Counted from the stretch's first letter, positions 22,651-57,138 are shown. The stretch: 64,000 nt of DNA from an uncultured Pseudomonadales bacterium (GCA_964645645.1 CAZYBC010000005.1:702-64701), one strand, 5' to 3'. A program made the numbers and translations. Notes: generated by a model from the sequence alone, not told the origin.

Positions 22651-22658
22651 GGGCAGTG

Positions 22659-27076: not shown

Positions 27077-27116
27077 AATAGGGTACAATATACTTATTAA
27101 TATAACAGATGCCAAG

Positions 27117-30923: not shown

Positions 30924-32069
30924 TTATTGATTAGCATTAAGTTTTAACAAAATTTCGTTACGAAAATCATCAATATTTTTAATTGTATAAACCCATAAAT
31001 TTTCATAATAGAAATCTGGAGGATTATAAAGTACCCCAGAAGGATCTGATGGATCAGTGCTTAAAGTTTGACCGACAATTTTGAGTTGATTAATAGTCGG
31101 TAAAAGAGCGCTCACTGTAGCAAATAAATCAACCAGACTTAAGGCTTGAGAATAATTTTGGTTATAAAAATTAATAATTTTTCCACCTATCTCAGGATGA
31201 TCATAAAAATATTGAGGATCTCCAACTTTATTGAAAAAAGCCTTGAATACTTCCTGTTGACGTTCACCTCTGGCGATATCATTACCTTCGTCATCAGCGC
31301 TTTTTCTTGATCTGATATATTGTAAAGCTCTTTTTCCAGACATTAATTGTTTGCCAGATTCAAAAGTAACGGTTTCATAAAGTAAATTCGGATCAGTTAC
31401 AGTGCTGATATCAACATCACTTTTAGGAAATTCTGTATCAGTAAAACCTTCAGCCACCTCAACTTCAATCCCACCAACAACATCAATTAATTGTTCTAAT
31501 TGTTCTAAAGATAAAACTAAAGTGTGATCAATATGAATATTAGTTAATTCACTAATTACTTGAGCTGGAAATTGAGTTGGATTAGTTTGATTACGCTCAT
31601 AACCATAAGCGAGTAAAGCATTAATTTTAGTTTGATAAGATTCGCTCCAAATATCTCTAGGTAAAGAAAGAATATTGATAGTGCCAGTATCAAAATGAAT
31701 TCTAACAATCATCATCGTATCAGTAAGAGGCGGAATATCACCTCGACTCTCTAAAGTATCTACTCCAAGCAAAAGAATAGTGGTTTCGGTTCTATTGGCT
31801 TCTTGATAAAGCTGGCTTTTATCATATCCAGTTTGAACCATAGAAAGCAAATTTCTAACTGGAATTTGAGCAGTAGATTCAAAAGCTTGGTATTTTTTAC
31901 TAAAAATAATAAATAAAATAGCTGAAGATAACCAAATTAAAAAAATACAAGTAAAAATAAAATAAGCAAACCAAGATAATTTTCTTTTCTTTTTTAAAGG
32001 TTGATTTTGATCATTGCTAGTATTAATTTGATCTTCCATAATGGGAAAATTCTGATTATTTTGATCCAT
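30924..32069 (-). CDS. LytR-CpsA-Psr (LCP) family glycopolymer phosphotransferase/ligase
   Basis: An N-terminal TM is followed by the LCP core TTILLLGVDTLESRGD...TDTMMIVRIHFDTGTINILSLPRDIW...INALLAYG. Confidence 0.8.
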   Translation of the reverse strand: MDQNNQNFPIMEDQINTSNDQNQPLKKKRKLSWFAYFIFTCIFLIWLSSAILFIIFSKKYQAFESTAQIPVRNLLSMVQTGYDKSQLYQEANRTETTILLLGVDTLESRGDIPPLTDTMMIVRIHFDTGTINILSLPRDIWSESYQTKINALLAYGYERNQTNPTQFPAQVISELTNIHIDHTLVLSLEQLEQLIDVVGGIEVEVAEGFTDTEFPKSDVDISTVTDPNLLYETVTFESGKQLMSGKRALQYIRSRKSADDEGNDIARGERQQEVFKAFFNKVGDPQYFYDHPEIGGKIINFYNQNYSQALSLVDLFATVSALLPTINQLKIVGQTLSTDPSDPSGVLYNPPDFYYENLWVYTIKNIDDFRNEILLKLNANQ

Positions 32070-33963: not shown

Positions 33964-35457
33964 ATGATTGAACAAACAGCTGTAGATACTACTGATGAAT
34001 TAGAAGAAGCACTGTCAGAAGAGCAAATTACACAGATTAAAAATAAATCAGTTTCTGGAGCAATTGCTTATTTTATAAGAACTTTATTTTTACAAGGAAT
34101 TGGTTTGGCAAGTGCCTTTGTGTTAAGCTGGTTTTTTGAGCCAGAAGATTTTGCAGTTTATGGTTTTGTCACTCAAATTATTGGATTATTAATCTTTTTT
34201 TCTGATGTCGGTTTGGCTGCAACTTTAGTAAAAAAAGAAACTGAACCTTCTGAAAATGATTACAAAACGACTTTTACAATTCAACAAATTTTATCTTGGT
34301 TTATCTTTTTAATAACTTGTTTAATTTTTGTTTTGGGATTTGTGCAAAAACGTTTTGGTATAGCCGGAGGATGGATTTTATTAAGTTTAGGTTTTTCTTT
34401 TCCTTTAGCTTCTCTAAAAACTATCTCTTCAATTAAATTAGAAAGAAAGCTGGATTTTTCTAAATTAGTAATTCCTCAAATTTTTGAACAAATTGTTTTT
34501 CACGGTTTATTAATCTTTTTAGCTTGGAGAAGCTATGGACCCATCGCTTATGCATGGGCGATTACTGCTCGGTCAATCATTGGCGTGATAGTGATGTTTA
34601 TTATTTATCCATGGAAAATCGGCTTTAAATTAGAAAATAGTAGTATTAAGCAATTATTGGGTTATGGTTTAAAATTTCAAATTAACGATTTATTAGCCCG
34701 TATTAAAGATCAATTGTTTTTCTTGGCGATTGGTTATTATTTGCCAATTAAAAGTTTTGGCTTAATTAATTGGGCTAAAAATTGGTCTTTGTATCCATAT
34801 AATCTCACAGTTCAAAATGTAATGGCTGTAACTTTTCCTACTTTTTCTCGTTTGCAGAAACACAAAGATTTATTGAAAAAAGCTTTAGAAAAATCAATCT
34901 TTTTTATTAGCCTTTTTATTTTTCCTCTTTTAACTGGCATGTGTTTAATGATTACTCCTTTTGTTACAGTAATTGAAAAATATCAAAAATGGCAGCCAGC
35001 TGTGCCAAGTTTTATTTTCTTTGCTTTAAGTATTGCTTGGGCTGCTTTGTCTACGCCTTTAATTAATACTTTAAATGCTATTGGAAAAATTAATCAAAGT
35101 TTAAAATTAATGATTATGTGGACAATTTTAACTTGGATTTTAACGCCAATTATGATGTTCTTTTTTGACTTCAATGGCGTAGCTATCGCTGCTTTCCTAA
35201 TTTCCTTTACTTCTGTTTTATCTATTAAATTTGTTAAAAAAGAAGTTGATATTCAAGTTTGGCCTAATATTTGGCGACAATTATTAGCTAGTTTAAGTAT
35301 GGTTTTAATAGCTTATTTAATTAGAGATTTTATGGCAAAAGATATACAAAGCTTTTTATTAAGTGGTGTAGCTATCAGCTTTACTTATTTGATAGCTTTA
35401 TTACTGATTGATAAAAATATGATTTTACAACAATTACATAGTTTAAAAGCTAAATAA
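33964..35457 (+). CDS. Wzx-like oligosaccharide/polysaccharide flippase (MOP superfamily)
   Basis: A 497-aa protein with about 12-14 TM segments. The N-terminal stretch (KNKSVSGAIAYFIRTLFLQGIGLASAFVLSWFFEPEDFAVYG) follows the typical polysaccharide-biosynthesis-protein pattern. Confidence 0.6.
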   Translation: MIEQTAVDTTDELEEALSEEQITQIKNKSVSGAIAYFIRTLFLQGIGLASAFVLSWFFEPEDFAVYGFVTQIIGLLIFFSDVGLAATLVKKETEPSENDYKTTFTIQQILSWFIFLITCLIFVLGFVQKRFGIAGGWILLSLGFSFPLASLKTISSIKLERKLDFSKLVIPQIFEQIVFHGLLIFLAWRSYGPIAYAWAITARSIIGVIVMFIIYPWKIGFKLENSSIKQLLGYGLKFQINDLLARIKDQLFFLAIGYYLPIKSFGLINWAKNWSLYPYNLTVQNVMAVTFPTFSRLQKHKDLLKKALEKSIFFISLFIFPLLTGMCLMITPFVTVIEKYQKWQPAVPSFIFFALSIAWAALSTPLINTLNAIGKINQSLKLMIMWTILTWILTPIMMFFFDFNGVAIAAFLISFTSVLSIKFVKKEVDIQVWPNIWRQLLASLSMVLIAYLIRDFMAKDIQSFLLSGVAISFTYLIALLLIDKNMILQQLHSLKAK

Positions 35458-38201: not shown

Positions 38202-38270
38202 CTTATTTTTCTACTATTTATTGTTTCATAATAATCCTATTATAATCCTATTATAATAACAAAGATATAA

Positions 38271-39830: not shown

Positions 39831-41164
39831 TGAAAAAGATTTTTCGCTATTGGCAAATTTTAGTGATTTTAATTTTAGCTTTTGTGTTACGTTTTTATCA
39901 TTATGCTCAATTTCCGATTGCTGGTGAAACCGCTGACGAGCGCGCTTGGACAATGATCGGGGCTAGTTTAATTCAGACTGGTAAACCAGCATCATGGTCA
40001 TATTTTGGTGCTTATGAAAAATTTAATGCAGTTCTTAAAAATACAAGCGAACCAATTGTTTCTCCTGCTTTAGATCACCCACCACTTTTTGCTTTAATTC
40101 CTGGTTTAGCACAAACTTTAAAGGCTAGCTGGGATCAACTGCCTTCTATTAAGGTAATTCGTTTTCCTTTGCTTTTATTAGGAACACTTAATGTTTATTT
40201 ACTTTATTTAGTAGCTGAAAAATTATTTAATCAAGAAAAACTGGCATTAGTAGCTAGCCTTATTTATGCCACTGCTCCAGTTTTTGTTTTTGCCAGCCGT
40301 TTAGTGATGGCAGAAAATTTATTAATTACTTGGATTTTGTTAAGTATTTATCTTTGTTTAACTAATTATAAAAGAAAATATTTTTTCTTAACCATCATTG
40401 CTGTTTTAGCAGTTTTAAGCAAATTTTCTGGAATAATTTTACCCACTTCGGTATTCTTGTATGCTCTGGTAATTAAAGATAAAAAATTAATCATTGCCTC
40501 TTTACTAGGTTTAGTGTTAGGTATTTTAGCCTTTTTTATCTATGGGGCTATTTATAATTGGCAATTATTTTTAGCGATTTTCTTTTCTCAATCAAATCGA
40601 GCAATTGGCTTTTTTACTTTTTATAATCGATTCTTTCTTCATCCTGGAGTAGTAGACAAATTATTTACTGATGGTTGGTTGATGTTGGGCTTTTTAGCAA
40701 GTTTTTTCTTAATTGCTTTTGAAAAAGACAAAAAATATTTGTTTATAAAAATTTTATTTATAATTAATTTATTATTTATTTTTGCTTCAGTAGGACAACA
40801 AACTTTTCATGCTTGGTATGATTACGTTTGGTATCCATTATTTGTTTTAGCAATTACATATTTGTTTAACTTTATTTATCAAACTAAAAATGATTGGTTA
40901 TTTGCCTTAAGTTATTTAACTTTACTACCTTTATTTCAGATTTTTTTCTTAGAGCTTAAATTTAATCCATCAAGCTTAATTACCAGATTAATTTTAGCTT
41001 TTAGTCTTAGTCCATTTTTAATTAAAATCTTTTTTAAAGATAAATGGGGAAGTAAAATAATGAAATTTAGTTTATTAATTTTATTAATCATTAATCTGAT
41101 TGTTATTGTGCGTTTTTCTCAAATACAATACTGGGAGACAGATAGTTTCTTATATTATCGTTAA
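39830..41164 (+). CDS. GT-C glycosyltransferase, ArnT/PMT-like ('DE' family, divergent member)
   Basis: FPIAGETADERAWTMIGASLIQTGKPASW resembles the ArnT DETRYAEISREMLASGDW motif. About 12 TM segments. Confidence 0.5.
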   Translation: MKKIFRYWQILVILILAFVLRFYHYAQFPIAGETADERAWTMIGASLIQTGKPASWSYFGAYEKFNAVLKNTSEPIVSPALDHPPLFALIPGLAQTLKASWDQLPSIKVIRFPLLLLGTLNVYLLYLVAEKLFNQEKLALVASLIYATAPVFVFASRLVMAENLLITWILLSIYLCLTNYKRKYFFLTIIAVLAVLSKFSGIILPTSVFLYALVIKDKKLIIASLLGLVLGILAFFIYGAIYNWQLFLAIFFSQSNRAIGFFTFYNRFFLHPGVVDKLFTDGWLMLGFLASFFLIAFEKDKKYLFIKILFIINLLFIFASVGQQTFHAWYDYVWYPLFVLAITYLFNFIYQTKNDWLFALSYLTLLPLFQIFFLELKFNPSSLITRLILAFSLSPFLIKIFFKDKWGSKIMKFSLLILLIINLIVIVRFSQIQYWETDSFLYYR

Positions 41165-41167
41165 CCT

Positions 41168-42862
41168 ATGAAAAAATCTTTAGCTTTAACAAAAAAAGAA
41201 TGTTTAATTTTTACTTTAATTCTTTTAATTGCCTTTCTAGTTCGGTTTATTAAAATTACCACCATCCCGATCGCTTTTAATCGTGATGAGCTGGCTTTGG
41301 CTTATAATGCTTTTAGTATTGCGCAAACAGCAAGAGATGAACGGGGTAATTTTTTACCCCTTAATTTTGAATCTTTTGGCGATTGGAAACTTCCTGGTTA
41401 TATTTATAGTCTTGTGCCTTTAATCAAGATTTTTGGGTTGAATGATTTGATAGTTAAATTACCTTCATTCTTAGCTGGCTTAGGAATTATTGTCATTAGT
41501 TTTTTTCTCATGCGTTTATGGCTGGATAAAAAAGACTCAAAATTAGCTTTTATGCTAATGTTTTTTTTAAGCATTTTGCCCTGGGCGGTTCATACTTCTA
41601 GAATTGCTTATGAGGCTAATTTAGCTTTATTTTTATTTAGTTTAGGAATATTAAGTTTTGAATTATTTAAAGAATCTTATTTGAAAGCTAAACAAATTAA
41701 ACTTTATTTAATCTGCTTAGCTGGTTTAAGCTTTTTTCTAACTTTACTGACTTATCATGGTTTTCAAATAGTTACTCCTTTATTTTTACTAGCTTTATTA
41801 ATAATTGAAAAAGAATTTTTATTAAAATTATTTAAACAAAATAAAAATGTTTTATTAATTCCAACAATTCTATTTTTATTATTAACAACACTATTTTTTC
41901 TAGCTGGCACTAAAAAAGCTAATACTGTTAAGGGCAGTGGCTTGTTAATTCTTAATCAAAGTTATCAAAACGAAATTTATGAAAAAAGAAATTTTCTTAA
42001 AAATAAACCGTTAATAGCAAAAATTTACGTTAATAGTTTATCTCTTAAATTAGCTAGTTTAAGAGATAATTTTTTTCAGACTTTTTCTTGGGATTTTTTA
42101 GTAACCAGTGGTGGTAAAAATGGCGCTCACAATATTAGTTTAATTGGTAATTTATACCCTTATGAAATAATTTTTATTTTTATAGCTTTATTTTATTTTT
42201 TTACTGAAAAAAAATTGTGGCAAAAAAAAGTTTTACTTTGGCTTATTACTGCCTCAGTTGCACCCATTTTAACCACTGCCCCAAATCACACAATCAGATT
42301 TATCGCGGGGATGATTCCTTTAGAAATTTTATCAGTCTATGGCTGTTATAAAGTTTATTTAAAATTTAAACATAAAAAATTTATAATTTTTATGTTACTT
42401 ATTACTTTAATTTACAACTGGTTTTATTATTTTGTCTCTTACTTTTTAGTTGCTCCATTAAAAGATGTTAATAGACATAACTGGGCTTTAAAAGAAATCA
42501 GTCAAGAAATTCAACAAAAAAAAGACCATTATGACTTAGTAATGATTGATGAATCTGGAACTTCTCTTTATATTTATTTGCTTTATTATTGGCAATATGA
42601 CCCTAAAAAACTTAGTAGCAATTTAGTTTATTATCCTCATGATGATGAAGGTTTCTCTCATGCTCAAGCTTTAGAAAATGTTGTTTTTGCCTTACCTAAT
42701 TTTATCGAAAATGAGAATAAAGATTATCAAAAAATTTTATATGTTTTAAAAAAATCACAAGTTCCAGAATTTATCTGGATCCAAGGTCATTATAAATATC
42801 TTAAGGAATTTAAAAATGACTATGCTAAAGAGACTTATGTCATGTTTGAATATGAAAAATAA
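41168..42862 (+). CDS. GT-C glycosyltransferase, PMT/ArnT-like ('DE' family core paralog)
   Basis: IAFNRDELALAYNAFSIAQTARDERGNFLPLNFESFGDWKLPGYIYSLVPL, and the C-terminal motif TAPNHTIRFI. Aligns with ORFs 49776 (C-terminal domain), 52174, 53871 and 55579. Confidence 0.6.
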   Translation: MKKSLALTKKECLIFTLILLIAFLVRFIKITTIPIAFNRDELALAYNAFSIAQTARDERGNFLPLNFESFGDWKLPGYIYSLVPLIKIFGLNDLIVKLPSFLAGLGIIVISFFLMRLWLDKKDSKLAFMLMFFLSILPWAVHTSRIAYEANLALFLFSLGILSFELFKESYLKAKQIKLYLICLAGLSFFLTLLTYHGFQIVTPLFLLALLIIEKEFLLKLFKQNKNVLLIPTILFLLLTTLFFLAGTKKANTVKGSGLLILNQSYQNEIYEKRNFLKNKPLIAKIYVNSLSLKLASLRDNFFQTFSWDFLVTSGGKNGAHNISLIGNLYPYEIIFIFIALFYFFTEKKLWQKKVLLWLITASVAPILTTAPNHTIRFIAGMIPLEILSVYGCYKVYLKFKHKKFIIFMLLITLIYNWFYYFVSYFLVAPLKDVNRHNWALKEISQEIQQKKDHYDLVMIDESGTSLYIYLLYYWQYDPKKLSSNLVYYPHDDEGFSHAQALENVVFALPNFIENENKDYQKILYVLKKSQVPEFIWIQGHYKYLKEFKNDYAKETYVMFEYEK

Positions 42863-44348
42863 ATTGTTATTTTTTCTTTTATTTTTAATTATTATTACGA
42901 GAATATTTTTTCTATTAGATCAAAACGTTAATTTTGTTTTTGATCAAGGAAAAGATTCTTTAGCAATTTTAAATATTTGGTTAAATAAAAAACCTACTTT
43001 AATAGGTCCTTGGACAAGTATCCCAGGACTTTTTTTTGGGCCAGCTTATTATTACTTATTATTACCGTTTTATATGTTGGCTAATGGCAATCCTGTTTTT
43101 GCTACAATCCCGATGATTCTTTTATTGTGTATTGCTGTAATTATCTTTTATTATAAATTTAATAAAACAGCAGCTTTAATTTTAGCCACTTCTACTATTG
43201 CCTGGACTATTACAACTAGTGCTTGGAATCCATTCCCAATGGTTTTAATTAGTACTTTAATTTTATATTTTTTAGAAAAAATAAAGGGTAAAAATTTAAA
43301 AAAGGATTATTTTTTTATTGGCTTAACAGCTTCTTTAGGATTTCATTTTTCAACAGCTTTTGCTATTTTTTATCCAATTATTATTGCTTTAGTTTTATTA
43401 CTCAATAAAATTAAAATAAATTTTAAAAAGATTTTCTTATTAATGATGGGATTTTTTCTTCCATTTATACCTCAATTAATTTTTGAAATTAGACATAATT
43501 TCATCCAAACAAAAGCAATCTTAGAATATTTAAAAAATGGAGAAAGTCAAAATTTGGGTTTAAGTAAATTATTATTAGTACTCAAAGACTCATTATCTGA
43601 ATTTAAAGTTTACAGTTTACCTAAATTTAATTTTTTCAATATTAAAATAAGCGATATTTTACTATTAATTTTATCTATTTATAGTCTTTATTATTTATTA
43701 AAATTTAAGAATAAATTGAACAAAAAAAAGATTATAGAAACCTTAATCTGGCTTTTTATTCCTTTTGCTTCTTACTATTTTTTACATTTCAATTTTTGGT
43801 ATTTGTTAGGCTTAGCTCCCATTGTGATTTTAACAGTTAGTAAAATTATTAATAAATTACCTATAAGTTTAAAAAATATAATTTTATTTTTATTTATTCT
43901 GAATCCATTATTTCAATTAAATAATTATTATCAAAATAAAAATTTCATTAATAATACTGGTGATTTTTTAAAAAACAAAACAGAAGTTATTAGTTACATT
44001 TATCAGCAAGCTAATAGTCAGTCTTTTGCTTCTTATCAATATGAACCTGCCATTTATGACTACAGCTATCAATATTTATTCTTCCAAAAAGCTCTAACTG
44101 GTGAAAAATTACCTTTTGAATTTTCTTATAAACCAGGAGAAATTAGCTATATTAAAGAGAAACCAGAATTATTACAATATTTTGCTAATAAAATATATCA
44201 AGAGCCTCCTCAAAAAATATTTTTTATCGTTGAAAAAGCAGAAAATGAGGCTTATTTAAAATCATGGTGGAATCAACAACATTATTCTAAAATTATTTCT
44301 GAAAGAAATTTTGGATCTAGTATAAAAGTATATGAAGCCTTACCATAA
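42852..44348 (+). CDS. Polytopic membrane protein, 'DQxRD...GPxYYY' family, paralog 3 of 4
   Basis: FVFDQGKDSLAILNIWLNKKPTLIGPWTSIPGLFFGPAYYYLLLPFYML. The ORF-track start at 42816 overlaps the upstream gene by 47 bp, so the internal MKNKLLFF start was chosen. Uncertain. Confidence 0.45.
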   Translation: MKNKLLFFLLFLIIITRIFFLLDQNVNFVFDQGKDSLAILNIWLNKKPTLIGPWTSIPGLFFGPAYYYLLLPFYMLANGNPVFATIPMILLLCIAVIIFYYKFNKTAALILATSTIAWTITTSAWNPFPMVLISTLILYFLEKIKGKNLKKDYFFIGLTASLGFHFSTAFAIFYPIIIALVLLLNKIKINFKKIFLLMMGFFLPFIPQLIFEIRHNFIQTKAILEYLKNGESQNLGLSKLLLVLKDSLSEFKVYSLPKFNFFNIKISDILLLILSIYSLYYLLKFKNKLNKKKIIETLIWLFIPFASYYFLHFNFWYLLGLAPIVILTVSKIINKLPISLKNIILFLFILNPLFQLNNYYQNKNFINNTGDFLKNKTEVISYIYQQANSQSFASYQYEPAIYDYSYQYLFFQKALTGEKLPFEFSYKPGEISYIKEKPELLQYFANKIYQEPPQKIFFIVEKAENEAYLKSWWNQQHYSKIISERNFGSSIKVYEALP

Positions 44349-44354
44349 ATTTAT

Positions 44355-45245
44355 ATGACTCTTTCTGTTGTTATTAATACTAAAAATGCAGAAGCTACTT
44401 TAAAAAAGTGTTTGGATTCAGTGAAGTTTGCTGATGAAATTATTATTGTTGATATGCATAGTCAAGATAAAACTCTTGAAATTGCTCAAAAATATACCAA
44501 TAAAATTTTTACTTATAAAGATGTCGGGTTTGCTGATCCAGCCAGAAACTTTGCTTTGTCTAAAGCTACTCAAAATTGGATTTTAATTGTTGATGCTGAT
44601 GAAGAAGTGCCTATTAGTTTAAAAAATAAAATTTTGGCTTTAATTGCTGAATCCAATAATACGCCAGCCTACTTTATTGCTCGTAAAAATATTATTTGGG
44701 ATAAATGGATTGAACATACTGGCTGGTGGCCAGATTACCAATTAAGATTTTTTAAACGAGGTGCTATTGATTATCCAGCTAAGATTCACACTAAGCCTCA
44801 AGCGCCTCAAAACAGTCAGTTTTTACCAGCCCAAGAGGATTTAGCCTTAATTCATTATAATTATCCAACTATTAGTAGCTTTTTAGAAAAAATGAATCGC
44901 TATACGGACTTAACTGACATTGCAGTTAATAAATTTGACGCTCAAGCTGTTTTAGATAAATTTTTTGCTGAATTTTTGGCTAGATATTTTGTTCATCAAG
45001 CTTATTTAGATGATTTAAATGGAACCGCCTTAGCTTTAGCTCAAAGTAGTTATGAATTATTTACCTATCTAAAAGCTTGGGAAAAACAAGGTTATAAATT
45101 TAATAAAAATAATCAACAAACTACTTTTGCCTTTTGGCGTAAGTTAAATAAAGATCTTAACTATTATTTAGCTGATTTCCAGGTTAAAAACACCACGGGC
45201 TTTAGTAAATTTTATTGGCAAATTAGACGTAAATTTAAGATTTAA
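44355..45245 (+). CDS. GT2 glycosyltransferase, WaaE/KdtX-like (paralog 1 of 3)
   Basis: LSVVINTKNAEATLKKCLDSVKFADEIIIVDMHSQDKT...ILIVDADEEVP follows the LSVVIxTKNEExxIxxCLxSVxWADEIIVVDSGSTDxT pattern of this GT2 subfamily. Confidence 0.7.
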   Translation: MTLSVVINTKNAEATLKKCLDSVKFADEIIIVDMHSQDKTLEIAQKYTNKIFTYKDVGFADPARNFALSKATQNWILIVDADEEVPISLKNKILALIAESNNTPAYFIARKNIIWDKWIEHTGWWPDYQLRFFKRGAIDYPAKIHTKPQAPQNSQFLPAQEDLALIHYNYPTISSFLEKMNRYTDLTDIAVNKFDAQAVLDKFFAEFLARYFVHQAYLDDLNGTALALAQSSYELFTYLKAWEKQGYKFNKNNQQTTFAFWRKLNKDLNYYLADFQVKNTTGFSKFYWQIRRKFKI

Positions 45246-45274: not shown

Positions 45275-46840
45275 ATGACAATCTCAAACAATAATACTTC
45301 AAAAAAAACTTGGCTTTTACTTTTTATCATTTTTTTATTATCAATTTGTTTACGTTATTTAGCTTTACTTGATTATAAAATTGTTTTTTGGTTTGATCAA
45401 AGTCGTGATGCATATATTTCTCAACAAATTATTAATAATCATGATCTAAAAATATTAGGTCCTTCGGCAAGTGGTACCAATGATACTATTTATCATGGTG
45501 TATTGTATTATTATTTTATTGCTCCATTTTATATTTTAAGTAAAGGTAATCCCTTATTACCAGCTTTAGCTTTATCTATTTTAGGAGCAACCGGAATTTT
45601 TCCATTATTTTTCTTTACAAAAAGTATTTTTAAATCTGCTAAAGTGTCTTGGCTATCTGTAATATTTTTTTCTTTTTCAGTAGAAATTGTTCAACTTTCG
45701 CATTGGCTATCTAACCCTTCTCTAGCTGTTATGCCATTAATTATTTTTTATTGGTCACTTTGGGAAAGTGCTTATCAAAATAAAAATAAATTTTTAATTC
45801 CTTTAGCACTTTCTTTAGGTGTTTGTTTACAAAGTGCTATTTGGCTTATATATCTTATGGGTTCATTATTAATTGCTATTATCTATAATTATGATCATTT
45901 TGGTAAAAAATCTCTTTTCATCAAATGGAAAAAATTATTATTGCCTTCTTTTTTAGTTATATTATTGATTTCAACTATTATATTAGGCCAAATTATGCTT
46001 TGGAAAAACCATGTTTTTAGTTTAAAAAATTTGCATGGTAATAATAGTCAAATCAGTATTGCTAATCAGATTGTTGGTTTATCCAATATGTATATAACTA
46101 AAGTATTACAGAGCATAACACCGTCTTCTCCGATTATTTCTTTAGTTTTATTTATTGTAATTTTATTGCAACTTACTAAGTTGAATCATCCTCAAAAACT
46201 TTTTTTCTTGTCTTGGATTTTGGCTCCTTTTTGGCTTTATATTATTGAATGGCGTAATAGTTTACATATGTTAATTTCTTTAGAAACAGTTTTATTTATT
46301 TTATTATCGGTTGCTTTAAACCAATTATGGAAAGACAAAAGACCTGTCCTAAAATGTTTAATGTTAATACTAGTAATAATTTTTATAATAACTAATTTAG
46401 TTCAATTACAAAAATATCGTAATAATGCTAGTAGCATTTTTTCTCCACAGCAAGGAACTGATTTATCAATGCAAAGAGAATTAATTGAATATACTTATAA
46501 AAAAGCCAATGGTCAAAATTTTTCTTTTTCAGTTTTTAGTAATCCATATGGATATTTTATTACTTGGGCTTATTTATATAATTGGTACAATATAGAACAG
46601 AATAAAAATTATTTACCCACTTATATAGGCCCAGATCAAAATGGATTATTTGGAAAAGAATTATTACCACGTAGTGATGTGCCAAAAAATAATTTACATT
46701 TTACTATCATAGAGCCTAATTTAGGCAGTGTTCCTGAAATTATTTTTCAAAAATTTATGCAAGAACAGGATTCTTTTGGAGAAGTAATTGAAAAACAACA
46801 ATTTGGTAGTACGCTCATTTATATGAGGCATGTTAATTAA
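45275..46840 (+). CDS. Polytopic membrane protein, 'DQxRD...GPxYYY' family, paralog 4 of 4
   Basis: VFWFDQSRDAYISQQIINNHDLKILGPSASGTNDTIYHGVLYYYFIAPFYIL. Confidence 0.45.
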   Translation: MTISNNNTSKKTWLLLFIIFLLSICLRYLALLDYKIVFWFDQSRDAYISQQIINNHDLKILGPSASGTNDTIYHGVLYYYFIAPFYILSKGNPLLPALALSILGATGIFPLFFFTKSIFKSAKVSWLSVIFFSFSVEIVQLSHWLSNPSLAVMPLIIFYWSLWESAYQNKNKFLIPLALSLGVCLQSAIWLIYLMGSLLIAIIYNYDHFGKKSLFIKWKKLLLPSFLVILLISTIILGQIMLWKNHVFSLKNLHGNNSQISIANQIVGLSNMYITKVLQSITPSSPIISLVLFIVILLQLTKLNHPQKLFFLSWILAPFWLYIIEWRNSLHMLISLETVLFILLSVALNQLWKDKRPVLKCLMLILVIIFIITNLVQLQKYRNNASSIFSPQQGTDLSMQRELIEYTYKKANGQNFSFSVFSNPYGYFITWAYLYNWYNIEQNKNYLPTYIGPDQNGLFGKELLPRSDVPKNNLHFTIIEPNLGSVPEIIFQKFMQEQDSFGEVIEKQQFGSTLIYMRHVN

Positions 46841-49775: not shown

Positions 49776-52184
49776 ATGTCAATTTCTGTACTCATCCCAA
49801 CTTTTAACGGTCAAAAATTATTAGCAAAAAATTTACCGGCTGTCCTAAAAGCTTTAACTAACAACGATGAATTAATTATTCTTGATGATGCAAGCACTGA
49901 TAATACTGTTTCATGGCTTAGTAATTATTTTAATTTAAGCCCAAGCCCTATTCCACAAAATTTAGCCAATCATTCTGTGGCTCAATTTTTGATTGGAACC
50001 AAACAAAAAATAAAAATTAAATTATTAGTTAATCAGCAAAATTTACGTTTTGGGCAAACGGTTAATCGAGGATTCTTAATAGCTGAAAATCAATTAGTTT
50101 GGCTTTTAAATAATGACGTGGCACCTTATCCCAATGCCCAACAATTTTTAGTCAAACATTTTAAAGATCAAACAGTTTTTGCCGTGGGTTGTTTAGAAAT
50201 AGAAAAAAATTTAGGAGGCGTTAAGGGTGGCAAAAATAAGCTTTGGTTTGACAAAGGCATCTTTATGCATAGTCGAGCTGAAGATTTTAAAACTGGGACA
50301 ACAGCATGGGCGAGTGGTGGTAGTGCCATGTTTGATAAAGAAAAATGGTTAAAAATTGGTGGATTTGATAAACGTTTTTATCCAGCTTATTGGGAAGATA
50401 TTGATCTTTCTCAAACGGCTAAAGAACATCATTGGCAAATTTTATTTGAAGAAAAAGCAATAGTTAATCATAACCATGAATCCACTAACGCTGATGTTTT
50501 TGGTCAAGCTCAAATAGAAAAAATTAGCTGGAAAAATGCTCAGAAATTTGTTTTTAAACATGGCACTATCTGGCAAAAACTAGCTAATTTACTGTGGCGT
50601 CCTTATTGGCTTTATCAGAGACAGAAAAAAAACAAATGGCAAATTTTAGTTTTTTTAGGTATTTTTATACTAGCGTCTATTTTAAGATTTTATCAATTGG
50701 GGAAAGTTCCTCATGGGATGACCTGGGATGAAGCAGCTATTGGATATAATGGTTTTGCTATTCTTAATACTCGAAGAGATGAATGGTTGGTAAGATTGCC
50801 AATTTCCTTTAAATCTTTTGGTGATTTTAAAGCTCCGCTAGCTATTTATCTTAATGGTATTTTTACTCACTTTTTAGGCATGAACTTGACTGCTGTTAGA
50901 ATGCCTTTTGCTTTAGCAGGGGTTGCTTCAGTAGTAGGAATTTTTCTGTTGGCACAAACAATGGCTGAATTTTTTAAATTAAAAACTATTCAAGGTTTAA
51001 AATGGCCATTTTGGGCAATATTAGGCTTAAGTCTTTCACCTTGGCATTTACATTTTTCAAGAATTGGCTTTGAATCGGGTTTAGCTTTAATGTTTATTAT
51101 TTATGCTTGTTACTTTTTATTTAAACTTTTTCTTGAATCAGAAAATAATTTTTTTAAAATCAATTTTTGGGCTGGCCTAGCATTCACTAGCTTTGTGGCG
51201 AGTCTTTATACCTATCATAGCAGTAAGATTTTTTTACCTTTATTTGCTTTATTGTTTTTAATTTTATTTTTTAAACATATTAAAAAACTTTGGTTAAAAA
51301 TTTTACCAGCCAGTTTATTTAGCTTAACCTTACTTTATCCTTTAATTAAAGATTCTATTTGGGGAGAAGGAATGACTAGAGCTAATTCATTAATTTTTAG
51401 TGAAAAGCTAAATTTTTTTCAATTAGCAGGCAAAATCATTACTCAATTACTTGCTCATTTATCTCCAGCCTTTTTATTTTTAGGTCAAACTGATACGTTA
51501 AGACATGGCCCAGGTAAATTAGCGGTCTTATTACCTGGCTCAATTATTCTCATTATTTTGGCCTGCTATTTTTTGTTAACTAAAAAATTTTCTAGCACTA
51601 AGAAAAAAATGTTTCAATTTTTATTAGGCTGGCTAATGATCGGTTTAATTCCTGCGGCTTTAGCTACTCCAGTTCCACATAGTAATCGTGCTTTATTAGC
51701 TTTACCAGCAATTATTTTAGGTTTAAGTTTAACACTAAGTTATCTTCGTTCTAAATTGATAATTGGGCTTTTTGTTATCATACAAAGTCTAAGTTTCATA
51801 GCTTATCTTCAATATTATTATCAAGATTTTGCTAAATTATCTGCCAATGATTTTAAAGATGGTTATTTAGAAATAATGGCAATCACTCAAGAATATGAAA
51901 AAGGTCTTAATGGCAAACCCAAAGTAGATAAAATCATTTTTACTAATGATTATGGCCAAGCTTATATTTATGCTTTATTTGTTAGACAAACTAATCCAAT
52001 TTGGTATCAAGGTGGTTCATTAATCAAATATGAATTTAAAGATGATGTTAATGTTGGAGATTTAAGCCGTAACAATAGCTTGATTATTGGTAGTAATAGT
52101 GATGATTTACCCACTGAAAAAGCTGATCATCTAGTTTATGGTAGTGACAATCAGGTAAAATTTAAAGCATTCTATGTTAAATAA
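49776..52184 (+). CDS. Bifunctional fusion: N-terminal cytoplasmic GT2 domain + C-terminal GT-C (PMT/ArnT-like 'DE' family) membrane domain
   Basis: Residues 1-~270 hold GT2 motifs: ISVLIPTFNGQKLL...LIILDDASTDNT...LLNNDVAPYPN...YWEDIDLS. Residues ~280-802 have 10 or more TM segments with GMTWDEAAIGYNGFAILNTRRDEW...SFGDFKAPLAIY and the C-terminal TPVPHSNRALL motif. Confidence 0.6.
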   Translation: MSISVLIPTFNGQKLLAKNLPAVLKALTNNDELIILDDASTDNTVSWLSNYFNLSPSPIPQNLANHSVAQFLIGTKQKIKIKLLVNQQNLRFGQTVNRGFLIAENQLVWLLNNDVAPYPNAQQFLVKHFKDQTVFAVGCLEIEKNLGGVKGGKNKLWFDKGIFMHSRAEDFKTGTTAWASGGSAMFDKEKWLKIGGFDKRFYPAYWEDIDLSQTAKEHHWQILFEEKAIVNHNHESTNADVFGQAQIEKISWKNAQKFVFKHGTIWQKLANLLWRPYWLYQRQKKNKWQILVFLGIFILASILRFYQLGKVPHGMTWDEAAIGYNGFAILNTRRDEWLVRLPISFKSFGDFKAPLAIYLNGIFTHFLGMNLTAVRMPFALAGVASVVGIFLLAQTMAEFFKLKTIQGLKWPFWAILGLSLSPWHLHFSRIGFESGLALMFIIYACYFLFKLFLESENNFFKINFWAGLAFTSFVASLYTYHSSKIFLPLFALLFLILFFKHIKKLWLKILPASLFSLTLLYPLIKDSIWGEGMTRANSLIFSEKLNFFQLAGKIITQLLAHLSPAFLFLGQTDTLRHGPGKLAVLLPGSIILIILACYFLLTKKFSSTKKKMFQFLLGWLMIGLIPAALATPVPHSNRALLALPAIILGLSLTLSYLRSKLIIGLFVIIQSLSFIAYLQYYYQDFAKLSANDFKDGYLEIMAITQEYEKGLNGKPKVDKIIFTNDYGQAYIYALFVRQTNPIWYQGGSLIKYEFKDDVNVGDLSRNNSLIIGSNSDDLPTEKADHLVYGSDNQVKFKAFYVK

Positions 52185-53868
52185 AAAACAATTTATTTTG
52201 GCTTTTATTTTAATTATATTTTTTGCAGCTCTACTTCGCTTAGTGGGTTTAACAAAATTACCACCAGCTCCATATTGGGAAGAAGTCGCTTTAGGTTATG
52301 ATGCGTATAGTTTATTAAAAACTGGCAAAGATCATCACGGTCATTCTTGGCCAATTGTAGCTTTAGAATCTTTTGGTGATTATAAACCAAGTGGTTATTT
52401 TTATGCTTTAATGCCGGTCATAGCTGTTTTAGGTTTAAATGTTGAAGCAGTTCGTTTACCCAGTGCTTTAGCCGGAATTGCGATGGTGGCTGGCATGATT
52501 GTTATTAGTCAATTACTTTTTTTTCCAGATAAAAAAGATAAAAAATCTTTGTGGCCACTAATTGCTGGCTTAATTATGGCCATTTCTCCTTGGGCAATTA
52601 TATTTTCTCGCTCTGCTTGGGAGGTTAATTTAGCAACAGCCATGTTGCTTTGGGCTATTATTTTAGGCATCAAAACTTTGCGAAGTAAAAATCTAAATTA
52701 TTATTGGCCACACTTACTCTTGTTAATAACTACTTTATATACTTACCATAGTACAAGAATTACTGCTCCTTTAATTGGAATTTGGTTTTTAGTGAATTTA
52801 CTTAAACAAAAAATTATTAAGAATAAAACACAATGGATACAATTATTATTAGCCTTAAGTTTAACTTTTCTAGCTGCTTTACCAATGTTATTAGCTATGC
52901 GACAAGCAGAATTTAGAATTCGTTTTGCTCAAACCAGTGCTTTTAATAACTCATCACTGATTGAACAAAGTAATGCGGCTAAAGAGCGTTTAAATAATAG
53001 CCTTTATGCCAGACTTGTTTATCATCGTTATTGGTTTTTCCTTAGAGAAATGAGCACTAATTTTTTGAGTCATTTTAATTTGAATTTTTTATTTATCAGT
53101 GGTGATATAAATCATCGTCATTCCATTCAAATGATGGGTCAACTGTACCATATCGAAATAATTTTTTTATTTTTTGGCTTTGTCTATTTATTTGGTAGAG
53201 AGAAAAATAATTTTAATAAATTTTTCTTATTATTTTGGTTGACAGCCGCTATTTTGCCAGCCAGTTTAACTAATGCTACACCACATGCCTTGAGAATTTT
53301 ACCTAGTTTACCAGTCTTTATTTTATTAATTATTTTAGGAATTAAAGAATTTTTGAACTTAATTAAACCACTAAATTTAAATAAGTTAATCAGAATCTTC
53401 AGCATAGTTTTAATTGTTGGTCTTTATTTAGGAGAATTTACTTATTTTATTCATAGCTACTGCAAACTTTATCCTCAACAATATAGTCAGGAATGGCAAT
53501 TTGGTTATCAGGAAATGCTAAGCGCTTTAGACAACTTAAAAGAACAATATCCAGATTTACCAATTTATATGACTAGAGAACAAGGGAGACCGGCTATGTA
53601 TTATTGGTTTTATCAAAACACCGATCCACGTTTAGTTCAACAAGCCGAAGCCAGCGCATTAAAAGATCAAGGTGAATTCTTAGAATTTGCTAATATTAAA
53701 TTTATCAATGGTTTAAATTTAGCCGAAAATAAACCAGCAATTCTGGTTGGCTCACCAGCTCAAATTATTCAATATCAACAAAGCTATCCCAATCGCCAGT
53801 TAGAAATTAAGCAAACGATTAAAGACTTAAAAGAAGAAGTTATTTGGCAATTAGCCATTTCAAATTAA
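52174..53868 (+). CDS. GT-C glycosyltransferase, PMT/ArnT-like ('DE' family core paralog; EE variant)
   Basis: APYWEEVALGYDAYSLLKTGKDHHGHSWPIVALESFGDYKPSGYFYALMPV, and the C-terminal motif NATPHALRIL. Confidence 0.6.
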   Translation: MLNKKQFILAFILIIFFAALLRLVGLTKLPPAPYWEEVALGYDAYSLLKTGKDHHGHSWPIVALESFGDYKPSGYFYALMPVIAVLGLNVEAVRLPSALAGIAMVAGMIVISQLLFFPDKKDKKSLWPLIAGLIMAISPWAIIFSRSAWEVNLATAMLLWAIILGIKTLRSKNLNYYWPHLLLLITTLYTYHSTRITAPLIGIWFLVNLLKQKIIKNKTQWIQLLLALSLTFLAALPMLLAMRQAEFRIRFAQTSAFNNSSLIEQSNAAKERLNNSLYARLVYHRYWFFLREMSTNFLSHFNLNFLFISGDINHRHSIQMMGQLYHIEIIFLFFGFVYLFGREKNNFNKFFLLFWLTAAILPASLTNATPHALRILPSLPVFILLIILGIKEFLNLIKPLNLNKLIRIFSIVLIVGLYLGEFTYFIHSYCKLYPQQYSQEWQFGYQEMLSALDNLKEQYPDLPIYMTREQGRPAMYYWFYQNTDPRLVQQAEASALKDQGEFLEFANIKFINGLNLAENKPAILVGSPAQIIQYQQSYPNRQLEIKQTIKDLKEEVIWQLAISN

Positions 53869-53870
53869 AA

Positions 53871-55589
53871 ATGCTAAATAAATTAAATAATTGGTTAAAA
53901 ATTAAAAATCATCATTATTATTTAATGATGGGATTGCTATTAATCGTAGCCATTTTTTTACGTTTATATAAATTGGGCCAAATTCCTTTTGCTCTTTACA
54001 TTGATGAATTAGCCATGATGGTAGATGCTAAATCTTTAAGTTTAACTGGTGTGGACATGCACGGTAAAGCTTTTTGGCAAAGTATGTTTTTATCTTATGG
54101 TGATTACAAGTTGCCAGTTTATCTTTGGTTAGCAACTTTGAGTTTTAAATTATTTAGAATTAGTGAATTTTACTTACGCTTACCCAGTGCTGTTATTGGC
54201 ATTCTAACGATTGTCTTAACTGGTATTTTAAGTCAAAAGATTTTTAATTCAGCCAATAAAAAATCTTTGCGCCAAATAATCAGTATATTAGTAATCACGT
54301 TTAGTCCTTGGGCAATGTTGTTTTCTAGGACAGCTTTTGAAGGGCATGTTGGACAATTTTTTCTTGGTCTAGCAGTTTTAATTTGTTTTTTAGCTTTAGA
54401 AATACCTGTTTTATTTTTATTAGCCGGTCTTAGTGCTGGCTTAGCAGTTTATTCTTATTTTTCAGTACGTTTTGTTTGGCCGATTATTTATTTAGCTTTT
54501 GGAATTTTGTTTGTTTTATTTAGAAAAAAAGAAACTCAAACTAAAAATTTATTACTAATAATCACTTTTTTTGTTTTAGGTGGTATCGTTTTCTTTTTAT
54601 CCTTACAACCTTTATATAAAAGTGAATATTATCAAGCCAGTAATCAATTCCGTTATAGCACTACCTCAGTTTTAAATCTCAAAGATTGGCCTGTGGAGTC
54701 TAATATTCTCAAAGAACAAGCTGGTAACCATTTTATTGATCGTTTCTTTTATCACCGCTATGTTTTGATGGCTAGACAATTAGCTAAAAATTATGCTGAT
54801 CATTTTTCTCTTAATTATTTGTTTTTTCAAGGAGATAGTAATTTAAGACATGGTACTGGACAACATGGGCTATTTTTATGGCCACTAATTTTAGCTTTTC
54901 TTTGGGGATTAATTATTTTATTTAAAAAAAATATTAAGGCTTTTGCCTTCTTATTAATTTGGTGGATTGCTGCTGTTTTACCAGCAGCTGTACCAATGGA
55001 AACTCCTCATGCTTTAAGATCACTGAATGCTTTAATTCCTTTAAGTATTATTATTGGTTTCGGCTTAAAAGAAATAATTATTGCTTTTACTCTTAGCCAA
55101 AAAAAATCAATTAAAATTTTAGTTTCTTCTTATTTTTTACTTTTAATTTTTAGCGCTTTTGAATTTGTGACTTTTTATTTTCAACAATATCCTTATGTTA
55201 GTGCCTTATCTTGGCAAGATCATCAAAAAGAATTTGTTCAAACTTTATTAGCTAAACAAAGCCAAACAGAGAAAATTTATTTGCAAGCTTTTACCAGTGA
55301 ACCATATTTAGGTTTCTTAGCTTATGATGAAAATTTAAAAGATTTTTCTCAATTAGATTTAAGTAATAATGATTTAAAACAAATTACTAATCAAATTAAA
55401 ATTACTGATATCTATCCAGATAATTGGGAAAACATTTTTCCTTTTCAAGCTAGATTTATAGTGGCTGGTGAGTACAAGTGGTTAATGAACAATCAATGGC
55501 TTTTAGAACCAGACTATCTTAAACAGGTAGAATTTATCTATAATAGTTTAGGTGAAAAAGCTTTTGCCATTTTAATTTATGAAAGATAA
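53871..55589 (+). CDS. GT-C glycosyltransferase, PMT/ArnT-like ('DE' family core paralog)
   Basis: ALYIDELAMMVDAKSLSLTGVDMHGKAFWQSMFLSYGDYKLPVYLWL, and the C-terminal motif METPHALRSL. The ORF-track start at 53844 overlaps the upstream gene by 25 bp, so the internal ATG was chosen. Confidence 0.6.
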   Translation: MLNKLNNWLKIKNHHYYLMMGLLLIVAIFLRLYKLGQIPFALYIDELAMMVDAKSLSLTGVDMHGKAFWQSMFLSYGDYKLPVYLWLATLSFKLFRISEFYLRLPSAVIGILTIVLTGILSQKIFNSANKKSLRQIISILVITFSPWAMLFSRTAFEGHVGQFFLGLAVLICFLALEIPVLFLLAGLSAGLAVYSYFSVRFVWPIIYLAFGILFVLFRKKETQTKNLLLIITFFVLGGIVFFLSLQPLYKSEYYQASNQFRYSTTSVLNLKDWPVESNILKEQAGNHFIDRFFYHRYVLMARQLAKNYADHFSLNYLFFQGDSNLRHGTGQHGLFLWPLILAFLWGLIILFKKNIKAFAFLLIWWIAAVLPAAVPMETPHALRSLNALIPLSIIIGFGLKEIIIAFTLSQKKSIKILVSSYFLLLIFSAFEFVTFYFQQYPYVSALSWQDHQKEFVQTLLAKQSQTEKIYLQAFTSEPYLGFLAYDENLKDFSQLDLSNNDLKQITNQIKITDIYPDNWENIFPFQARFIVAGEYKWLMNNQWLLEPDYLKQVEFIYNSLGEKAFAILIYER

Positions 55590-57138
55590 GCATTTACTTA
55601 AAACTATCTTAATTGCTTTAATCGGCTTATTTGCTTTATTAAGATTAATTAACTTAGGCACTAATCCGATAATCCTTAATCGAGATGAAGCTGCCTTAGG
55701 TTATAATGCCTGGCTTTTATCTCAGACTGGTTGGGATGAATGGCATCAAAAATGGCCGTTAATGATTAAATCATTTGGTGATTATAAATTACCAGGCTAT
55801 GTTTATTTATTAGTCCCACTATTTAGAGTTTTTAGCACCAGTGATTTTTTATTAAGATTACCGGCTTGTCTTTCAGGGATAATTTTAATTTATTTGAGTA
55901 TCAATTTAGCCAAAAAATTAGGCTTAAAAAAAATTACAACATTAATTTTTGCTTTAAGTATCGCGATTACTCCGGTGTTTTTCTTTTATTCTCGCATGGC
56001 GTGGGAGGCTAATTTAGGCTTAACTTTGCTAATTGGTAGTTTGATTTGCTTATTAAATAAACAAAAATTATTTAATTACTTAGGAATAATTTTAATTTTA
56101 TTAGCTTGCTTTACTTATAATACTCCTTATCTATTATTACCTTTTATTTTAGTTGCTCTAATTTTTTGGCAAAAAATGATTGGCAAAAAAACTAATTGGC
56201 TAATTATTTTAGCCTTAGGCATAGTTTTTATTGGTACTAGTTTAATGATTTTGCCACTTACTAATCAAAAAAGCGGCATTACGATTTTTACTGATCCAAC
56301 GGTAAGAGCTAATTATATTAATTATCGAGCTGATTTTAGTGGCTTAAGTCAAAAAATTTTAGCTAATCAATATATCTATTGGGCATCACTAATGTTCAAA
56401 AATACTTTAGCCAGCTTTAGTTATCAATTTTTAGTAAAAAATGGTGGTGGTCATCCTTGGCATAGTCAGCCTGGTTTTGCTCATCTAAATAATAGTTTTT
56501 ATTTTGTCGGTTTAGCTAGTTTAGTTTTTAATTTAGGAAAAATAATCATTGATTTAATTAAACGTCGTAAAATTCAGTTGCCAATGGTTTTTTTAATTTG
56601 GCTTTTATTTTCAGCATTAATTCCCAGTGTAATTACTACAGACGCCCCACATGCCACTCGGAGTTTATTGTTTTTTTATCTATTTAATTTAATGGCCGTA
56701 ATCGGTTTAGAACAATTTTATTTAGCTGTTATTAAAAAAAAGCCAATGCTAGTGAAAACTTTATTGCTGATCTTAGCAAGTTTAATTAGTTTAGAAACTG
56801 GTCGCTATTTTTATCACTATTTTGTAAGTTATCCTCAGCAACAAACAGCTTTACAGCCTGGTTATCAAAAAGTTTTAGCAGAAGTGAAGTCAACTAATCA
56901 AGCCATTGCCGTGGTTGATCCAAGTGGGTATCAATATATTAGCACTGCTTGGTATCTAAAATTACCTACTAAAATCTTTCTTGATACAGTTATTCATCAA
57001 AATCCTAACCAAATTGGCTTGTCTTATGGAGAAAGAATTAACAATTATCACTTTATTGCCCAAAAAGAAGACCGTAATGAACAAGAAAAAATTTTAATTA
57101 TTTGGGAAAATGGGCAATGGGTTATACAATATTATTAG
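55579..57138 (+). CDS. GT-C glycosyltransferase, PMT/ArnT-like ('DE' family core paralog)
   Basis: ILNRDEAALGYNAWLLSQTGWDEWHQKWPLMIKSFGDYKLPGYVYLLVPL, and the C-terminal motif TDAPHATRSL. Confidence 0.6.
   Translation: MKDKHLLKTILIALIGLFALLRLINLGTNPIILNRDEAALGYNAWLLSQTGWDEWHQKWPLMIKSFGDYKLPGYVYLLVPLFRVFSTSDFLLRLPACLSGIILIYLSINLAKKLGLKKITTLIFALSIAITPVFFFYSRMAWEANLGLTLLIGSLICLLNKQKLFNYLGIILILLACFTYNTPYLLLPFILVALIFWQKMIGKKTNWLIILALGIVFIGTSLMILPLTNQKSGITIFTDPTVRANYINYRADFSGLSQKILANQYIYWASLMFKNTLASFSYQFLVKNGGGHPWHSQPGFAHLNNSFYFVGLASLVFNLGKIIIDLIKRRKIQLPMVFLIWLLFSALIPSVITTDAPHATRSLLFFYLFNLMAVIGLEQFYLAVIKKKPMLVKTLLLILASLISLETGRYFYHYFVSYPQQQTALQPGYQKVLAEVKSTNQAIAVVDPSGYQYISTAWYLKLPTKIFLDTVIHQNPNQIGLSYGERINNYHFIAQKEDRNEQEKILIIWENGQWVIQYY

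Follow-up and report, generated by a model that had tools for sequence, protein, structure and literature searches.

In the three- and four-component transmembrane glycosylation systems (GtrA/GtrB/GtrC, ArnC/ArnE-F/ArnT, CsbB/GtcA/YfhO and GacI/J/K/L), a cytoplasmic glycosyltransferase of family GT2 and an extracytoplasmic glycosyltransferase of the GT-C type work on polyprenyl-linked sugars (PMC10821137; PMC8035078). In the model for the lactococcal polysaccharide pellicle (PSP; WpsA-J), an oligosaccharide is elongated on polyprenyl phosphate by several cytoplasmic glycosyltransferases (GTs), flipped by a Wzx-type protein and then polymerised or transferred by GT-C enzymes (PMC10821137). Here I describe a single protein of 802 residues that joins a GT2 domain to a GT-C domain. 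It is encoded on the plus strand from position 49776 of a 64,000-nucleotide stretch of DNA, the window (CAZYBC010000005.1:702-64701 of GCA_964645645.1), deposited under the name of an uncultured Pseudomonadales bacterium. Other open reading frames (ORFs) of the window are likewise called by their first coordinate. The two units of this protein are a conserved and functionally linked gene pair that has been fused repeatedly.

The locus resembles the multi-component systems in that a cytoplasmic GT2 and an extracytoplasmic GT-C appear in one pathway with a flippase encoded nearby. In those systems, however, the GT2 belongs to the polyprenyl-phosphate type and forms a polypeptide of its own, whereas the one described here is WbbL-like and covalently joined to the GT-C. 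Thus, although a GT-C domain and a nearby Wzx-like gene are present, the GT2 part sets the locus outside three-component transmembrane glycosylation; a canonical system of the multi-component type seems to be encoded separately in the window, on the minus strand at 20323-23855. For the lactococcal PSP components (WpsA/B, WpsC-F, the flippase WpsG, and the GT-C enzymes WpsH and WpsJ) the window offers analogues in the ArnC-like ORF 35470, the Wzx-like ORF 33964, five soluble GTs and many GT-C proteins. Yet no PSP component is a GT2-GT-C fusion, and the GT-C paralogues are far more numerous here.

Mycobacterial arabinogalactan is assembled by the cytoplasmic GT2 enzymes WbbL, GlfT1 and GlfT2, the GT-C enzymes AftA-D and EmbA/B, and an Lcp ligase, all of them separate proteins. 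The window has a comparable inventory (rhamnosyltransferase/GlfT1-like GT2s, dTDP-rhamnose genes, a battery of GT-C proteins and an LCP ligase), a similarity at the level of families only. A precedent for a GT2 that is fused in some genomes and split in others is Ppm1 (Rv2051c) of M. tuberculosis, whose GT2 is joined to a neighbouring membrane protein in some species and encoded by one of two adjacent genes in others; the Ppm1 GT2, however, is a polyprenyl-phosphate mannose synthase, and its partner is an Lnt-like domain rather than a GT-C. Literature searches found no described GT2-GT-C fusion, and the only fusions in the two likely papers were GacJ-GacI (WpsB-WpsA). The architecture itself is already in public databases, unnamed or under generic names such as 'GT2 family glycosyltransferase/4-amino-4-deoxy-L-arabinose transferase-like glycosyltransferase' (JGI).

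The fused protein and its two domains

The ORF of 802 codons runs from ATG to TAA without interruption, in a window of 29.7% G+C. An indel falsely joining two genes would most plausibly lie in a run of eight A (A8) in the linker, the only plausible site for such an error, and the existence of split pairs in other genomes would fit an artefact of this kind. However, the very same protein is encoded in an independent assembly, on a Logan contig of run SRR29243425 that matches the window at 100% identity over 3957 bp. With seven A in place of eight, the GT2 frame would stop at codon 291, yielding a 290-residue product that ends in QKKTNGKF, and no ATG, GTG or TTG would remain to start a GT-C gene that includes the first transmembrane helix (TM1). 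The nearest homologue (P0001; 806 residues, 68-69% identity) is fused with the same linker, and the junction DNA of the other fused genes, found at 26 loci in all, is unrelated and free of homopolymers. Furthermore, a protein homologue search returned more than 60 proteins of 790-890 residues at 96-100% query coverage and 38-68% identity, all from Patescibacteria-type metagenomes; 45 fused homologues (38-69% identity) are colinear through the junction, where the linker varies by 0-25 residues before TM1. The fusion is real, and the chance that it is a sequencing or assembly artefact is next to nil.

The A8 run, one of 54 runs of at least eight A or T in the window, is not conserved in the other fused genes and is probably incidental. 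Programmed slippage at this run, giving a GT2-only product, was considered and rejected because of the number of such runs and their absence from the other fused genes.

The N-terminal domain matches PF00535 (Glycos_transf_2) over residues 4-189 (E 1.2e-17; 64.8 bits against a cut-off of 23.3) and PF13641 (Glyco_tranf_2_3) over residues 3-244 (E 1.3e-10; 42.1 bits against 27). A full-length AlphaFold2 model, built on a multiple sequence alignment of 45 full-length homologues, is confident (pLDDT 91, pTM 0.83; pLDDT above 90 over most of the GT2 domain), and Foldseek places it with the GT-A-fold enzymes GalNAc-T2, the fucosyltransferase WrtF and the rhamnosyltransferase RmlT at a probability of 1.00. 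The motifs DDASTDNT, NND and EDID are all present, and D38, D42, N112, D114, E207, D208 and D210 are invariant in the 45 fused homologues, as is the whole of P203-D208. Two long helices follow (residues 237-262 and 265-282), which I take to lie at the membrane interface; Q267, P276 and W278 are conserved in this region (237-283). Up to the residues PYW the helices stay with the GT2 protein where the pair is split, and they are conserved in fused and split forms alike.

Because Foldseek on the full-length model was dominated by the GT-A domain, the C-terminal half was modelled separately with AlphaFold (pLDDT 90, pTM 0.91). The top 26 PDB matches of this model are all GT-C enzymes: ArnT (5ezm/5f15) comes first (E 2-3e-6, TM score 0.53, sequence identity 8-9%), followed by AglB/STT3, Pmt4, ALG9/12/3, EmbA/B/C, AftD, AftA and DPY19. 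ArnT (GT83) is thus the best structural match and Pmt4 (GT39) also a strong one, although the protein differs from both ArnT and the PMTs in its 11 predicted transmembrane (TM) helices and in a C-terminal domain that is small and distinct. PMTs are known to carry an acidic DE motif in their first outer loop, and D318-E319 is placed likewise. In the 45 fused homologues the charged residues D318, E319, D335, E336, K352, R375, E433, H481 and R535 are invariant; in a domain alignment with standalone homologues and the window paralogues, the first-outer-loop acid E49 is invariant and D48 is at least 90% conserved. Four clear GT-C paralogues lie in the window (ORFs 52174, 41168, 53844 and 55579; 26-29% identity, E 6e-36 to 2e-17 by BLASTP). 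Judged by its modelled structure, the C-terminal half is a GT-C at the level of the fold; judged by its sequence, it is a distant relative of ArnT and the PMTs rather than a demonstrable member of PMT_2, GT39 or GT83. Many of its database homologues have matches to PF13231 (PMT_2), and in some sources they are entered as GT39 or ArnT family.

The helix count in the model predicts 11 TM helices with the N-terminus inside and the C-terminus outside. The long loops 306-370, which hold D318-E319, and 530-587 are predicted to lie outside together with the C-terminal domain, and the short loops carry 16 lysines and arginines on the predicted inner side versus 3 on the outer. The GT2 domain is accordingly predicted to be cytoplasmic and the catalytic loop of the GT-C extracytoplasmic.

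I regard this anatomy as very nearly certain. It bears out what the sequence-only reading of the stretch had proposed, namely a single GT2-plus-GT-C chain with intact GT2 motifs and no false junction, a C-terminal half in a DE-motif GT-C family, and domains on opposite faces of the membrane, the last as a prediction. That reading had also recommended looking for the same fusion in related genomes, and it is there.

Fused and split genes, and a second fusion partner

A scan of one genome per GTDB species recovered 473 relatives, and 82 Patescibacteria loci were classified by ORF content. The titles of the best 80 of the 473 relatives name Pacebacteria/Paceibacterota, Woesebacteria, Microgenomates or Patescibacteria, and many others read 'uncultured Pseudomonadales'. 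The title 'uncultured Pseudomonadales bacterium' stands on many metagenome-assembled genome (MAG) records with a typical Patescibacteria cluster, and among loci L003-L082 one is titled Vitreimonas sp. (L047) and one Methylococcaceae (L077); all of these look like mislabels or mis-binned contigs.

The two units are fused in 26 of the 82 loci, adjacent but separate genes in about 37, and separated by 1-4 kilobases in about 13, whereas six loci have no GT2 on the stretch covered. The order GT2 then GT-C is kept in 76 loci. Where the genes are split neighbours they overlap by 4 nucleotides or stand 0-10 nucleotides apart; where they are separated, the gap holds one or two further GT-C-like genes or stretches that match no ORF of the window, in those loci whose gene order was inspected. 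A Patescibacteria MAG (L001, contig JBMORP010000006) illustrates the split state within the same cluster: its GT2 (7153-8004) has 283 residues, is 53% identical to residues 2-279 of the fused protein and ends five residues after PYW, and the ATG of its 530-residue GT-C (8001-9593) overlaps the GT2 stop codon as ATGA.

The GT2 has also found another partner. In L006, L027 and L076, three loci counted among the roughly 37 adjacent ones, its fusion partner is the orthologue of the upstream GT4 (ORF 48669), and the GT-C gene follows downstream on its own. Such GT4+GT2 proteins occur as well among the representatives (P0234 and P0243) of a library of 1.84 billion proteins clustered at 50% identity. 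In that library 715 proteins match at E of 1e-30 or below, and the top 150 of them include about a dozen full-length fusions as against about 100 standalone GT-C proteins. On a neighbour-joining tree of GT-C domains the fused forms fall in at least five clades and require seven Fitch changes, an approximate count of fusion events given that the tree carries no support values. The fusion has arisen or reverted several times.

The gene order around the pair is conserved across genomes: YfhO-like (32211), Wzx-like (33964), GT2 (44355), rhamnosyltransferase-like GT2 (46919), GT2 (47838), GT4 (48669), the GT2/GT-C pair (49776), three GT-C genes (52174, 53844 and 55579), GT2 (57142), GT4 (57923), a PTPS_related membrane protein (58990), an ORF of no assigned family (60599) and an epimerase (61758). 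The fusion sits exactly at the border between five soluble GTs (GT2, GT2, GT2, GT4, GT2) and a block of GT-C-like membrane proteins. The GT2 unit is always the last gene of the five-GT block, and among the conserved members of the GT-C block, which counts at least four paralogues, the GT-C unit comes first. The locus is a conserved cell-envelope glycopolymer cluster of Patescibacteria, tiny and uncultured bacteria here of the Microgenomates/Pacebacteria/Woesebacteria type.

Proposed function and its alternatives

The reading I favour, at a probability of roughly 0.55, is that the ORF encodes a bifunctional membrane glycosyltransferase that carries out two steps in a single pathway for a lipid-linked glycopolymer. 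The C-terminal helices of the GT2 domain would hold it at the cytoplasmic face of the membrane and perhaps dock it on the GT-C; there it would use a nucleotide sugar to add one residue to an oligosaccharide that the preceding GTs have built on polyprenyl (pyro)phosphate. The syntenic Wzx-like protein would flip the lipid-linked glycan, and on the outer face the GT-C domain would transfer or polymerise it, using D318/E319 and conserved basic residues; alternatively, it may decorate the glycan with a polyprenyl-phosphate sugar supplied by separate ArnC/DPMS-like enzymes. The GT-C paralogues might likewise act on the glycan there, by polymerisation, transfer or decoration, and the LytR-CpsA-Psr (LCP) enzyme would attach the product to the wall. 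Such a scheme runs parallel to the model of the lactococcal PSP pathway (PMC10821137). It is also comparable to the assembly of mycobacterial arabinogalactan. A fusion of this kind arises easily, since it takes no more than losing the stop codon that parts two overlapping genes, and topology permits it because the GT-C begins on the cytoplasmic side. That it recurs and persists suggests some advantage in a fixed stoichiometry or in co-localisation, and the fusion probably fixes both for two steps of one assembly line.

The sequence-only reading had likened the protein to GtrB/ArnC-plus-ArnT logic in a single chain, in which the GT2 would charge polyprenyl phosphate with a monosaccharide and its own GT-C would use the flipped lipid-linked sugar as donor. 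A cytoplasmic GT2 paired with an extracytoplasmic GT-C does mirror the known three-component systems (PMC10821137), the helices at the end of the GT2 would bring it to the surface of the membrane, conservation of the pair is strong and its fusion recurrent, and acceptor specificity is not readable from sequence. The family resemblance of the GT2 nevertheless points elsewhere. Its closest GT2 in the window is the WbbL-like ORF 46919 (28% identity over 218 residues, E 2e-12 by BLASTP), so that the earlier view of the two as paralogues is acceptable. The GT2 family profile aligns to this ORF by hhalign over 234 columns (probability 99%, E 7e-18), taking in the whole acceptor-side half with its ED motif (YWEDIDLS against YFEDVDYS) and the helix that follows. 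By this alignment the GT2 shows the acceptor-side motif of WbbL/rhamnosyltransferase-like enzymes (GGFDE/D..F..Y.ED.DL..R). ORF 46919 matches the TIGR01556 and GlfT1 models of NCBIfam; in the same scan the 802-residue protein itself has no match to TIGR01556, and the best matches of its GT2 domain, all sub-threshold, are to EpsD, PgaC and MftF-type models.

Similarity to the polyprenyl-phosphate enzymes is, by comparison, confined to the N-terminal part. The NCBIfam ArnC model aligns to residues 3-65 only (E 0.05) rather than at full length, and the ArnC/PpgS-like ORF 35470 aligns to the GT2 profile by hhalign only through its N-terminal nucleotide-binding half (108 columns). For the PDB chains of DPMS, GtrB and ArnC the match extends only through about the first 50-60 positions of the profile, and none of the three is among the top 50 Foldseek matches of the full-length model. 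A PDB sequence search with the whole protein gave only generic N-terminal GT2 matches, and one with the GT2 profile only N-terminal matches of about 55 residues. By all available tests, then, the GT2 domain classifies as WbbL/rhamnosyltransferase-like and not as polyprenyl-phosphate type (ArnC/GtrB/DPMS/PpgS), which leaves the single-chain ArnC-plus-ArnT interpretation unsupported. Moreover, ArnC/DPMS-like candidates are encoded separately (ORF 35470, and ORF 22659 fused to GtrA), the GT2 is fused to a soluble GT4 in three loci, as is expected of consecutive glycan-elongating enzymes, and other genes stand between the two units in about 13 loci. I consider it unlikely that the GT-C draws its donor from the GT2 of the same chain, and infer that the fusion makes no cycle of donor synthesis and donor use. 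The same loci temper the tight coupling that had been read from the fusion: the pair is indeed conserved and repeatedly fused, but with one or two genes between its members in some genomes and a GT4 as the GT2's partner in others, tight coupling was an overstatement.

Neighbouring genes may also fuse to no purpose, through loss of a stop codon in a compact genome that joins an adjacent soluble GT to an N-in membrane protein, the two activities sharing no more than an operon. The junction lies just at the border of the two gene blocks, split genes overlap or nearly touch, the GT2 fuses with its other neighbour too, and the fused state is a phylogenetically scattered minority. Against such neutrality, fused lineages persist over a deep divergence (38-69% identity among 45 sequences), the helices up to PYW are conserved whether or not the genes are fused, the full-length pTM of 0.83 suggests a defined arrangement of the domains, and the order GT2 then GT-C hardly varies among the 82 loci; I therefore hold a neutral fusion to be rather unlikely, though quite conceivable. 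That the GT-C half is catalytically dead, and does no more than anchor or scaffold the GT2 at the membrane or form a channel for its product, would agree with its lack of a match to any curated family model and with the many paralogues, some of which could be degenerate. Its charged residues are nonetheless invariant at the expected sites, conservation is high throughout, the extracytoplasmic C-terminal domain included, and standalone orthologues are widespread, so that a dead GT-C seems most improbable. Slightly less remote, but still very unlikely, is a self-contained trans-bilayer machine in which the GT2 would load a sugar or short glycan onto a polyprenyl carrier bound at the interface between GT2 and TM1 and the GT-C domain would itself give the lipid-linked product a path to its own active site on the outer face, with no separate flippase.

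Several points weigh against the two-step bifunctional reading itself, the approximate count of fusion events among them. The C-terminal 532 residues alone match nothing in Pfam or NCBIfam, PF13231 included, even at E of 10 or below, and the GT-C family profile finds only ArnT 5ezm in the PDB (E 0.056). Because no curated family model matched, the GT-C assignment rests on predicted structure. Among 52 of the 55 window ORFs of at least 100 residues there is no initiating phosphoglycosyltransferase of the WecA/TagO or WbaP type, so the carrier could be a phosphate or a pyrophosphate; the glycan may be initiated by the ArnC-like GT2 at 35470 or by an enzyme encoded elsewhere. Finally, the donor, the acceptor and the order of action proposed above are inferred from family type and gene order only.

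Surrounding genes and the meaning of the module

The features of the protein and of its surroundings are collected in Table 1.

Table 1. Positions of the fused gene, its domains and motifs, neighbouring genes of the window, and GT4+GT2 fusions in other loci.
Feature	Position	Strand	Evidence or remark
Whole ORF: GT2, linker helices, GT-C and C-terminal domain	49776..52184, stop codon included	+	ORF listing, translation
GT2 (GT-A fold) catalytic domain, residues 1-236	49776..50483	+	Pfam, model, Foldseek; predicted cytoplasmic
DDASTDNT nucleotide-binding motif, residues 37-44	49884..49907	+	D38 and D42 invariant
NND motif at the DXD position, residues 112-114	50109..50117	+	N112 and D114 invariant
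EDID acceptor-side/catalytic-base motif, residues 207-210, within PAYWEDIDLS	50394..50405	+	common to ORF 46919
Two long conserved helices (237-262, 265-282; WQKL..LLWxPYW), then a short basic linker	50484..50624	+	DSSP of model
A8 homopolymer in linker (codons K-K-N)	50625..50632	+	only plausible indel-artefact site
GT-C membrane domain, residues 284-688, about 11 TM helices, N-in	50625..51839	+	models, Foldseek, positive-inside count, window paralogues
D318-E319 acidic motif, first extracytoplasmic loop (MTWDEAAIGYN)	50727..50732	+	invariant in 45 fused homologues
C-terminal alpha/beta domain, residues 689-802 (VDKIIFT..YGQPYIYALF..NP..YQGGSLIKYEF)	51840..52181	+	models, alignment; predicted extracytoplasmic, highly conserved
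First GT2 of conserved cytoplasmic GT block	44355..45245	+	orthologue in 60/82 loci
Two soluble GT2 genes: 304 residues, rhamnosyltransferase/WbbL-like, and 275 residues	46919..48665	+	orthologues in 66/82 and 68/82 loci
Upstream GT4, 367 residues	48669..49772	+	orthologue in 69/82 loci
Three GT-C paralogues (564, 581 and 519 residues), directly downstream	52174..57138	+	orthologues in 54, 37 and 35 of 82 loci
Wzx-like flippase (Polysacc_synt_3)	33964..35457	+	syntenic with module in other genomes
ArnC/PpgS/AglJ-like polyprenyl-phosphate glycosyltransferase candidate, 236 residues	35470..36180	+	ArnC model positions 4-215/316, PpgS 4-213/226
LytR-CpsA-Psr (LCP) family protein	30924..32069	-	family attaching glycopolymers to peptidoglycan
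Canonical-looking set: GT2 with GtrA/DPMS TM domain, 398 residues	22659-23855	-	
Canonical-looking set: PMT_2 GT-C	21100-22650	-	
Canonical-looking set: GT2, 250 residues	20323-21075	-	
GT4+GT2 fusions, 656-722 residues	L006:6895-8865, L027:8855-10945, L076:8265-10433		GT-C encoded separately downstream

Directly after the Wzx gene, ORF 35470 matches models of ArnC, PpgS, AglJ and dolichyl-phosphate hexose transferase near full length and, on these matches, is likely to be the polyprenyl-phosphate sugar synthase of the cluster. Genes for nucleotide sugars in the window include RmlB, RmlD, a GDP-mannose dehydratase, an epimerase and a UDP-glucose dehydrogenase. The minus-strand set at 20323-23855 is closer to GtrB/ArnC-plus-ArnT logic than is ORF 49776.

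About a dozen GT-C-like or related proteins lie between 17562 and 60615, an extreme expansion in which several members fall below Pfam thresholds or have no match: 17562(-), 21100(-), 32211 (a weak YfhO match), 38271, 39830, 41168, 42816, the C-terminal half of 49776, 52174, 53844, 55579, 58990 (PTPS_related) and possibly 45275. In several loci whose gene order was inspected Wzx-GT2-GT2-GT2-GT4 is unbroken; compared with them, the window carries an insertion (35470-44348) that parts the Wzx gene from the first GT2 and comprises the ArnC-like GT2, a minus-strand ORF of 674 residues and four GT-C paralogues. The 674-residue ORF, at 36177-38201 on the strand opposite to the surrounding glycan cluster, has no Pfam match; ORFs weakly similar to it (22-30% identity) adjoin the GT-C gene in L033, L038 and L044. 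An extra membrane protein of 521 residues stands between the first and second GT2 (45275-46840), and a membrane protein is found there in L001 and L005 too. Beside rmlD/rmlB (28524-30417, minus strand) lies a PIN-domain ORF, also on the minus strand (27760-28173), that shares 8 nucleotides with the 3' end of the plus-strand gene trmD (27069-27767).

No concept is overturned by this protein, as both of its domains belong to known superfamilies and fusion of operon neighbours is common. With catalytic domains on both membrane faces, such a chain would make an attractive target for cryo-electron microscopy and would aid study of how lipid-linked glycan assembly is organised between its cytoplasmic and its extracytoplasmic steps. 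Were the trans-bilayer machine to prove true, a single polypeptide would couple synthesis with translocation and transfer. The substrates of GT-C enzymes are difficult to assign, and the large expansions of these enzymes in Patescibacteria are unexplained. The recurrent fusion ties one specific cytoplasmic GT2 to one specific GT-C, a Rosetta-stone link in which both members lie within a widely conserved module, and that module is a starting point for reconstructing the envelope glycopolymer pathway of an uncultured phylum.

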